DNA of 36,921 nucleotides. Source: a virus (Duplodnaviria > Heunggongvirae > Uroviricota > Caudoviricetes). The stretch spans positions 1 through 36,921 of IMG/VR virus record IMGVR_UViG_2531839667_000014, one strand, 5' to 3'. Every line of letters starts with the position of its first letter. The first letter of the stretch is position 1. The notes under the pieces are model-generated. The model searched no databases, was not told where the DNA came from, and worked only from the letters and a program-made list of their open reading frames with translations. The position numbers were made by a program, and so were the translations under genes. Below, piece after piece: positions 10,550 through 11,187 of the stretch.

Positions 10550-10861
10550 TCACTGAGACACTATTAAAAGCGCGTTTTCCAGTCCGGCAAATGGATCTGA
10601 TACGCCTTCTGTCTGCTCCTTCTCCCACTGAAGAAGCGCATCATTCAGTGGCACTTTGACCCCCTGCGCACCGTAAACAGCTGAAACAATCTGGGCAGCC
10701 CGGATATCAGCCCGTTCGTCCCCCAGCGGACTGAACCTGTCAAATTCTGCCCACATCATGATTTCTGATGCTGACATTTCCCGGCGTAACTCTGACAATG
10801 TGCGCCCCATCCTGAGCGCCAGCATCATCAGAAAACGCATCCCCGGAAGCGCTACTTTTTT
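10550..10861 (-). CDS. T: tail assembly chaperone T segment, expressed as a G-T fusion by -1 frameshift
   Basis: ORF in the -1 frame relative to G; reading from the slippery site gives ...KKVALPGMRFLMMLALRMGRT...; contains a DRFSPLGDERAD segment typical of lambda gpT-like proteins. Confidence 0.75.
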   Translation of the reverse strand, partial: KKVALPGMRFLMMLALRMGRTLSELRREMSASEIMMWAEFDRFSPLGDERADIRAAQIVSAVYGAQGVKVPLNDALLQWEKEQTEGVSDPFAGLENALLIVSQ

Positions 10862-11187
10862 TTAACCTCGCCGGCATCACTGATCAGTTCCAGAGACTGC
10901 CGAAGAAGCCGCGCATGCACCGGACCATACACGGCTATCACCTGTTCACGATCATCCTCTGAAAATACATGTTGCAGTCCGGTATCACACAGAACATCAA
11001 TGAACAGTTCAACATCTGCCTCCAGATTTCGGCGGGCGCGCTCCGCAACGGATAACGGTGTCTCATCATCTTTTGCTTTAACGATCTCCTGCCAGCGCAA
11101 CCAAGCTTCTGCAGAAGGTTCCCGTAATACAACCGTTGCTCCCTCCCATTCAGGCACATCAACAGTTTTATGGCGAAACCCCGACAT
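10852..11187 (-). CDS. G: tail assembly chaperone G, 5' end separated by the IS insertion
   Basis: 111-aa ORF starting MSGFRHKTVDV... begins 11 nt from the IS end; removing the IS and one TSD copy restores MTKNIRNLALATMSGFRHK... Confidence 0.75.
   Translation of the reverse strand: MSGFRHKTVDVPEWEGATVVLREPSAEAWLRWQEIVKAKDDETPLSVAERARRNLEADVELFIDVLCDTGLQHVFSEDDREQVIAVYGPVHARLLRQSLELISDAGEVKKK
10855..10861 (-). promoter_or_regulatory. programmed -1 ribosomal frameshift slippery heptamer A-AAA-AAG
   Basis: Minus-strand sequence GTT AAA AAA AAG TAG at the end of G; shifting -1 continues directly into the T frame. Confidence 0.75.

Follow-up and report, generated by a model that had tools for sequence, protein, structure and literature searches.

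A probable −1 frameshift on A_AAA_AAG in the G/G-T tail-assembly-chaperone genes of an HK97-like lambdoid E. coli prophage, in a copy interrupted by IS100

The window, that is, the whole stretch of 36,921 nucleotides that was analysed, carries on its minus strand a group of tail genes in the classical order V, G, T and H (Table 1). Sequence and frame analysis placed the overlap between G and T on this strand; the first-pass annotation had given no strand. The homologues of the V-like gene carry a tail-protein annotation in relatives, and native G adjoins this gene downstream. The Ig-like domain of the major tail protein is seen in Pfam Ig_2/Ig_3 and PHROG Hoc-like matches at residues ~140-250. 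At the other end of the group lies the H-like gene for the tape-measure protein, to which G and G-T presumably bind. The interval between T and H holds a terminator-like hairpin, which is strong and sits inside what is expected to be a single late operon. In HK97 and HK106 the corresponding interval contains annotated terminators and, in addition, a moron (gp15), whereas here it contains the hairpin only.

Table 1. Positions of tail genes, frameshift elements and insertion-sequence features in the window, in the order in which the minus strand is read
Feature	Position	Strand	Description	Evidence
Major tail protein gene (V-like)	13197..13952	−	C-terminal Ig-like domain	phrog_158 3.3e-110; weak Pfam tail-tube and Ig matches
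5' stub of native G, 31 nt	13152..13182	−	ATG 13182..13180; last 5 nt are one ACTGG copy	comparison with intact relatives L001 and L002
Target duplication ACTGG, 5 bp	13152-13156 and 11193-11197		flanks IS100	
IS100 (IS21 family), 1,954 bp	11198..13151	−	inserted in gene G, same orientation as tail genes	
IS100 terminal inverted repeats	11198..11225 and 13124..13151		28 nt, imperfect	
IS100 genes istA; istB	13065..12043; 12046..11264	−		Pfam rve, IstB_IS21
3' part of G	10852..11197	−	native codons 11-123 and TAG; 11197..11193 is the second ACTGG copy	PF06222, 2OB9, alignment
−1-frame stop TAA	10864..10862	−	overlaps gT TAA, directly before the A-run	
A8 run	10863..10856	−	contains most of the slip heptamer	
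Slippery heptamer A_AAA_AAG	10861..10855	−	0 frame of G, TAG directly after	frame analysis
0-frame G stop TAG	10854..10852	−		
T segment, −1 frame (KKVALPGMRFLMM...LIVSQ, then stop)	10550..10861	−	entered only via the slip site	PF06223; phrog_14766; conservation
Conserved Pro codon of T	10846..10844	−		
Non-conserved ATG of T	10840..10838	−		
Family-wide Met of T	10828..10826	−		
T stop TGA	10552..10550	−		
Terminator-like hairpin (AACCGCTTCGGCGGTT then T-run)	10518..10541	−	between T stop and tape-measure start	
Tape-measure protein gene (H-like), 1,081 aa	7264..10509	−		PF06120 Phage_HK97_TLTM 1.9e-91; TMP_3; Tape_meas_lam_C; phrog_339

The minus-strand ORF at 11187..10852 comprises 111 codons and ends in GAG GTT AAA AAA AAG TAG, with T in the −1 frame, as the first-pass annotation had read it. 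Its last codons form A_AAA_AAG in the 0 frame of G, a canonical X_XXY_YYZ heptamer. The −1 frame is closed by TAA immediately ahead of the A-run and is then open for 103 codons up to the TGA of T, and the sole passage from G into T is a stretch of 10 nt that is occupied by A8G. The earlier proposal that a slip back by one base reads straight through into T was reproduced exactly: the −1 slip on the heptamer yields ...GEVKKKVALPGMRFLMM..., a product of 212 aa when counted from ATG 11187. In an intact relative the predicted fusion would have a mass of about 25 kDa and contain the junction peptide ...GEVKKKVALPGMR. Rarity of the heptamer was considered as an argument and dropped, with 14 copies of AAAAAAG found on both strands of the window against 8.1 expected. 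The non-random signal is instead the exact frame and position of the heptamer, the location of the site between the members of a known frameshift Pfam pair and its conservation in homologues. By frame arithmetic, the AAAAAAG copy within the major tail gene (13349-13355) is out of the X_XXY_YYZ frame.

Both halves of the overlap were assigned by profile searches. The upstream ORF matched Pfam Phage_TAC_1 (PF06222) at 4.7e-53 with 178.8 bits, against a gathering cut-off of 25, and the −1 segment matched Phage_tail_T (PF06223) at 2e-18 with 67.0 bits, against a cut-off of 25.9. The G part also had a match at 8.5e-48 to the HK97 tail assembly chaperone, PDB 2OB9, and a single profile of 224 positions, phrog_14766, spanned the G and T halves together. 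The arrangement is that of the G/G-T class: two overlapping ORFs lie between the major tail and tape-measure genes, the downstream one is offset by −1 and the overlap contains a slippery sequence, and T lacks a conserved start and ribosome-binding site of its own and is conserved as coding sequence as far back as the slip site. The G remnant, however, covers Phage_TAC_1 profile positions 13-124 only.

The missing part of G lies beyond a copy of IS100. The 1,954-bp element is 99.9% identical to annotated IS100 copies and has the features expected of it, namely a length of ~1.95 kb, terminal repeats starting with TG, istA followed by istB and a short target duplication. Similarity to intact relatives ends 10 nt upstream of ATG 11187 and begins again beyond the element, at 13156..13182. 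In phage vB_EcoM-606R7 and in E. coli strain 165, intact G has 123 codons and starts MTKNIRNLALATMSGF..., and alignment with relatives identified ATG 11187 as native Met13. The G ORF of the first-pass annotation is thus a 3' remnant, whose ATG is codon 13 of a 123-codon gene and not the native start. The native start codon, with the SD sequence GAGGA just upstream of ATG 13182, now reads into IS100 and gives a 16-aa peptide, MTKNIRNLALVSRTVQ, that ends at a stop codon. The insertion left the slip site and T unaltered. A search of 5,426 complete E. coli genomes gave no instance of this IS100-G junction.

Because IS100 sits 31 nt into native G, the ORF that remains begins at an internal codon without a ribosome-binding site; no SD sequence was found before ATG 11187. 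The element separates the body of G from its start codon and ribosome-binding site, and this copy is therefore probably defective: as judged from the sequence, it probably yields too little G and G-T to be of use, and the prophage probably cannot assemble tails. The end of IS100 bears a TTGACA hexamer that faces G. A hybrid promoter built on this hexamer was considered and rejected, as no acceptable −10 element was seen by eye at 16-18 nt and the promoter scan gave no promoter-like minus-strand site reading from IS100 into G. We nevertheless weighed the possibility that the copy still works, with transcription through or out of IS100, initiation at Met13 and a G' protein lacking 12 residues that supports tails together with G'-T. 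The remnant ORF runs unbroken from Met13 to its stop, the element and the tail operon share the same orientation, and weak initiation at Met13 combined with read-through transcription across IS100 could give some truncated G' and G'-T; the unchanged slip site and T and the outward-facing TTGACA point the same way. Set against this are the lack of an SD sequence and of a promoter into G, the absence of the 12 initial positions of the Pfam domain and the polar effect that a 2-kb insertion in a late operon is likely to have on G, T, H and the tail genes further downstream. We consider a functional copy improbable.

The junction was then compared in 160 further homologous loci, 80 from viral contigs and 80 from genomes, one per species. 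The first pass scored 148 of these, the regular expression for the G motif having missed 12, and T was in the −1 frame at 144 of the 148 scored loci. Seven of the 12 missed loci were inspected by hand, and all seven had T at −1 with a slip motif. A de-duplicated tally, which adds annotated phage loci and does not depend on the G pattern, gave 114 distinct junctions, 109 of them with a compatible G frame; the five set aside were four A-run variants and one locus (L095) in which the G frame is interrupted further upstream. All 109 compatible junctions had T at −1 and an A-rich slip motif in the overlap, counting as motifs A_AAA_AAG, G_GGA_AAG, A_AAA_AAC/A, G_GGA_AAC or, as a minimum, A_AAG. A_AAA_AAG lay directly before the G stop in 44 distinct junctions and 24-30 nt before it in a further 16. 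G_GGA_AAG was present in seven, A_AAA_AAC in six, A_AAA_AAA in two and G_GGA_AAC in one, and the remaining 33 had the A_AAG tetramer only (HK97 type GAA AAG TCT; Klebsiella type GCA AAG TAA). In an alignment of 33 diverse homologues (A2) the only invariant junction nucleotides were AAAGTA, corresponding to A_AAG followed by a UAR stop, and the triplet upstream in the heptamer varied between AAA, GAA and GCA. The −1 arrangement spans Enterobacterales, the Halomonas group, Burkholderia, Achromobacter and Pseudomonas, down to about 35% protein identity. The earlier claim that this is the conserved programmed frameshift of long-tailed phages is supported by these junctions, by the Pfam pair and by the match to HK97 gp14 described below.

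The survey also bears on a reading in which the offset is unprogrammed, a frameshift mutation or a sequencing error that has turned a single gene into a pseudogene. The length of the A-run does vary among relatives: near locus position 1370 it is A7 in L047 and L062 and A6 in L117, which puts T in the +1 frame, and with A9 in L096 (Ca. Symbiopectobacterium) G and T are fused in one frame, so that a one-frame G-T gene can exist. Such variants may be real variation or homopolymer sequencing error. A chance lesion is hard to reconcile with a −1 arrangement at nearly all scored loci, kept from Enterobacterales to Pseudomonas at the protein divergence given above and present in the experimentally studied phage HK97. 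On these comparative data the pseudogene reading appears effectively refuted, and we give it practically no weight.

A second alternative is that T is a separate protein, translated by independent initiation or by re-initiation after the G stop, either from ATG 10840 (MRFLMM...) or from Met 10828. RefSeq and PGAP give relatives a separate CDS, 'phage tail assembly protein T' or DUF4035, a single Met never varies within the family, and in this lineage ATG 10840 follows the TAG by 11 nt, where some re-initiated T would be possible. Neither ATG has an SD-like sequence at a usable distance, though, and the alignment column of ATG 10840 contains I, V, M, T or L. At 64 of the 109 junctions the T frame has no ATG, GTG or TTG upstream of the conserved Met. 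Residues upstream of this Met are nonetheless kept at the protein level, with Pro(−6) present in 108, Val(−9) in 87 and Lys(−10) in 83 of the 109, and all three positions lie outside the search pattern. T is, moreover, always at −1 with a slip motif where the frames overlap, and HK97 and HK106 are annotated as fusions, which also speaks against separate translation. Independent translation of T in homologues had been named beforehand as an outcome that would overturn the frameshift, and the homologues argue against it; we regard a separate T as highly improbable.

Fusion of the two frames could also come about mainly by transcriptional slippage, with RNA polymerase adding one A on the A8 run. 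The A9 mRNA so produced would encode an identical G-T, some relatives have A9 in their DNA (L096, and L069 and L070, which read AAA AAA AAA TAG), and slippage of the bacterial enzyme has been documented on runs of 9 A or T (PMC5009743). The A8 run of the window is one base shorter than this documented slippage-prone length of at least 9. Many −1 homologues, moreover, have no long homopolymer at all, their junctions reading GCA AAG TAA, GAA AAG TCT or G GGA AAG, and the element that is conserved is the tRNA-Lys slip codon and not a polymerase slip tract. Transcriptional slippage as the main route is thus very unlikely, although the A8 run could add a little of it to a ribosomal −1 shift, the reading that we retain.

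The G/G-T frameshift of long-tailed phages was reportedly described by Levin in 1993 and by Xu, Hendrix and Duda in 2004. For comparison with known systems, the native fusion was rebuilt by in silico removal of the IS, which gave a query of 224 aa. This reconstructed G-T was 63% identical to HK97 gp14 over all 224 aa, and the RefSeq entry of gp14 is annotated 'translated due to a -1 frameshift'; in HK106 the protein is given as a joined CDS. HK97 gp13/gp14 belong to the same Pfam families, occupy the same interval between the major tail and tape-measure genes and have T at −1 as here. The two systems differ in the slip site, since HK97 slips on CGG GAA AAG, an in-frame A_AAG tetramer 15 nt before the G stop, whereas the full heptamer abuts the stop in the window, and of the two copies only that of the window is broken by IS100. 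With the ECs1801/ECs1802 fusion of E. coli O157:H7 Sakai (prophage Sp9) the identity was 67%. The Sakai genes have the identical A AAA AAG TAG, followed by ...RFLM..., and the same gene order; Sp9 belongs to a different lineage (Stx/Sp-type lambdoids), contains no ATG from the slip site up to the conserved Met and carries no IS. ECs1801 falls in the cluster A_AAA_AAG_25, also GeneTack cluster 10, and is catalogued as a true −1 PRF ('tail assembly chaperone; [true]'; Sharma et al. 2014, PMC4066793).

The module would share its mechanism and role with lambda G/G-T, in which a −1 shift near the end of G gives a low-abundance G-T. The T part of lambda belongs to Phage_tail_T and the pair occupies the same place before H. 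The lambda slip sequence is G_GGA_AAG, 15 nt before the G stop, and its T is longer (144 aa annotated). Direct BLASTP against lambda G-T gave nothing significant, lambda G had no BLASTP similarity to the G of the window, and the Pfam profile is the sole link to lambda T. An alignment with HK97 and lambda, put forward in the first-pass annotation as a check, was accordingly clear for HK97 and gave nothing significant by BLASTP for lambda. The same annotation had called the site dnaX-type rather than lambda-type. E. coli dnaX has the same A_AAA_AAG heptamer in the 0 frame and the same tRNA-Lys/AAG logic, but the shifted product of dnaX is the shorter one and that of G-T the longer. In dnaX the signal further comprises an SD-like element some 10 nt ahead of the heptamer and a strong stem-loop on the 3' side, and shifting there is about 50%. 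The designation consequently holds for the heptamer, A_AAA_AAG as opposed to the G_GGA_AAG of lambda, and fails for the SD element and stem-loop of dnaX, which are absent here.

The only SD-like element near the heptamer is GAGG, 4 nt upstream. This is too close, as a dnaX-type stimulator would lie about 10 nt (6-17 nt) upstream, and the SD-like strings seen in homologues coincide with Glu/Asp/Gly codons; an upstream SD stimulator was therefore rejected. A downstream RNA stimulator was likewise dismissed. Single-sequence folds of the 65-135 nt after the slip site gave marginal z-scores of −1.6 to −2.6, and their hairpins start ~1 nt or ~22 nt downstream, away from the spacing of 5-9 nt of a dnaX-type stem-loop or pseudoknot. 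RNAalifold on the 33 diverse homologues returned zero consensus pairs. A GCGCUC...GGGCGC hairpin ~33 nt downstream overlaps the conserved ALRMGR codons and, judged by eye, is lost where homologues have GK for GR. For cluster A_AAA_AAG_25, too, no conserved SD sequence and a hairpin no more stable than background have been reported (Sharma et al. 2014, PMC4066793). The signal thus appears to be a bare motif that is at most helped or tuned by the adjacent stop codon.

As to efficiency, the weak pairing of tRNA-Lys(UUU) with AAG makes A_AA.A_AA.G one of the heptamers on which E. coli ribosomes shift most readily (Sharma et al. 2014, PMC4066793). Bare V_VV.A_AA.G heptamers without a stimulator nevertheless gave only about 0.3% shifting in reporters (PMC4066793). 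For lambda, where the G/G-T mechanism is established, the ratio is roughly 30:1 (PMC5009743), and the bare-heptamer value is about ten times below it, which counts against the model. One way to close this gap would be for the adjacent stop to tune the G-T:G ratio, with a release factor at the A-site stop competing against −1 slippage of the P-site peptidyl-tRNA-Lys. If true, this would explain a useful shift frequency without any RNA stimulator. At 66 of the 109 junctions, the one in the window included, the slip codon AAG (or AAC/AAA) lies directly before the 0-frame stop. Against the idea, the G stop of other subfamilies lies at a distance of 3 to 30 nt, and when a stop was placed behind a slippery sequence in one bacterial study, shifting fell and came to respond to release factor (PMC4373837). 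We regard tuning by the stop codon as doubtful, if with some slight chance of being correct.

In summary, we consider it highly probable that the locus represents the G/G-T tail-assembly-chaperone module of an HK97-like lambdoid E. coli prophage, with a −1 frameshift on A_AAA_AAG in the intact gene, and that it is damaged here by IS100. In the intact gene most ribosomes would make G (123 aa) and terminate at TAG, while a minority would slip back by one base on the heptamer. During the slip one tRNA-Lys would re-pair from AAG to AAA and the P-site tRNA-Lys from AAA to AAA, and the slipped ribosomes would read the T segment in the −1 frame to produce a 224-aa G-T fusion. The role of the G-T fusion in lambda tail assembly is known (PMC5009743). 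If they act as in lambda, G and the corresponding part of G-T would coat the tape-measure protein and the T part would recruit the major tail protein; tail assembly would need a fixed, low G-T:G ratio, and neither protein would be present in the virion.

The G/G-T frameshift is a textbook recoding event, and for this chaperone family both the frameshift and its A_AAA_AAG motif are already known and catalogued (HK97 gp13/gp14; the ECs1801 cluster). The one feature peculiar to this copy is its IS100 insertion, which probably inactivates the module. The finding therefore matters little for discovery and somewhat for annotation. Sequences covering at least 80% of the G-T query occur in 858 of 5,426 complete E. 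coli genomes. In one intact relative, L002 (NZ_CP020509.1), PGAP has placed an independent T CDS starting MMLAL... at 3370-3648 without a ribosomal-slippage join, and stand-alone T CDS annotations, as 'phage tail assembly protein T' or 'DUF4035 domain-containing protein', were found among the relatives listed. With T given as a separate CDS and no slippage join, the annotation of a common prophage module thus omits the G-T fusion. In the window itself an ORF finder reports a plausible G of 111 codons, which is really the remnant of an IS100-disrupted gene, and recognition of the IS shifts the call for this prophage from one with a normal tail module to one that is probably tail-defective and cryptic.
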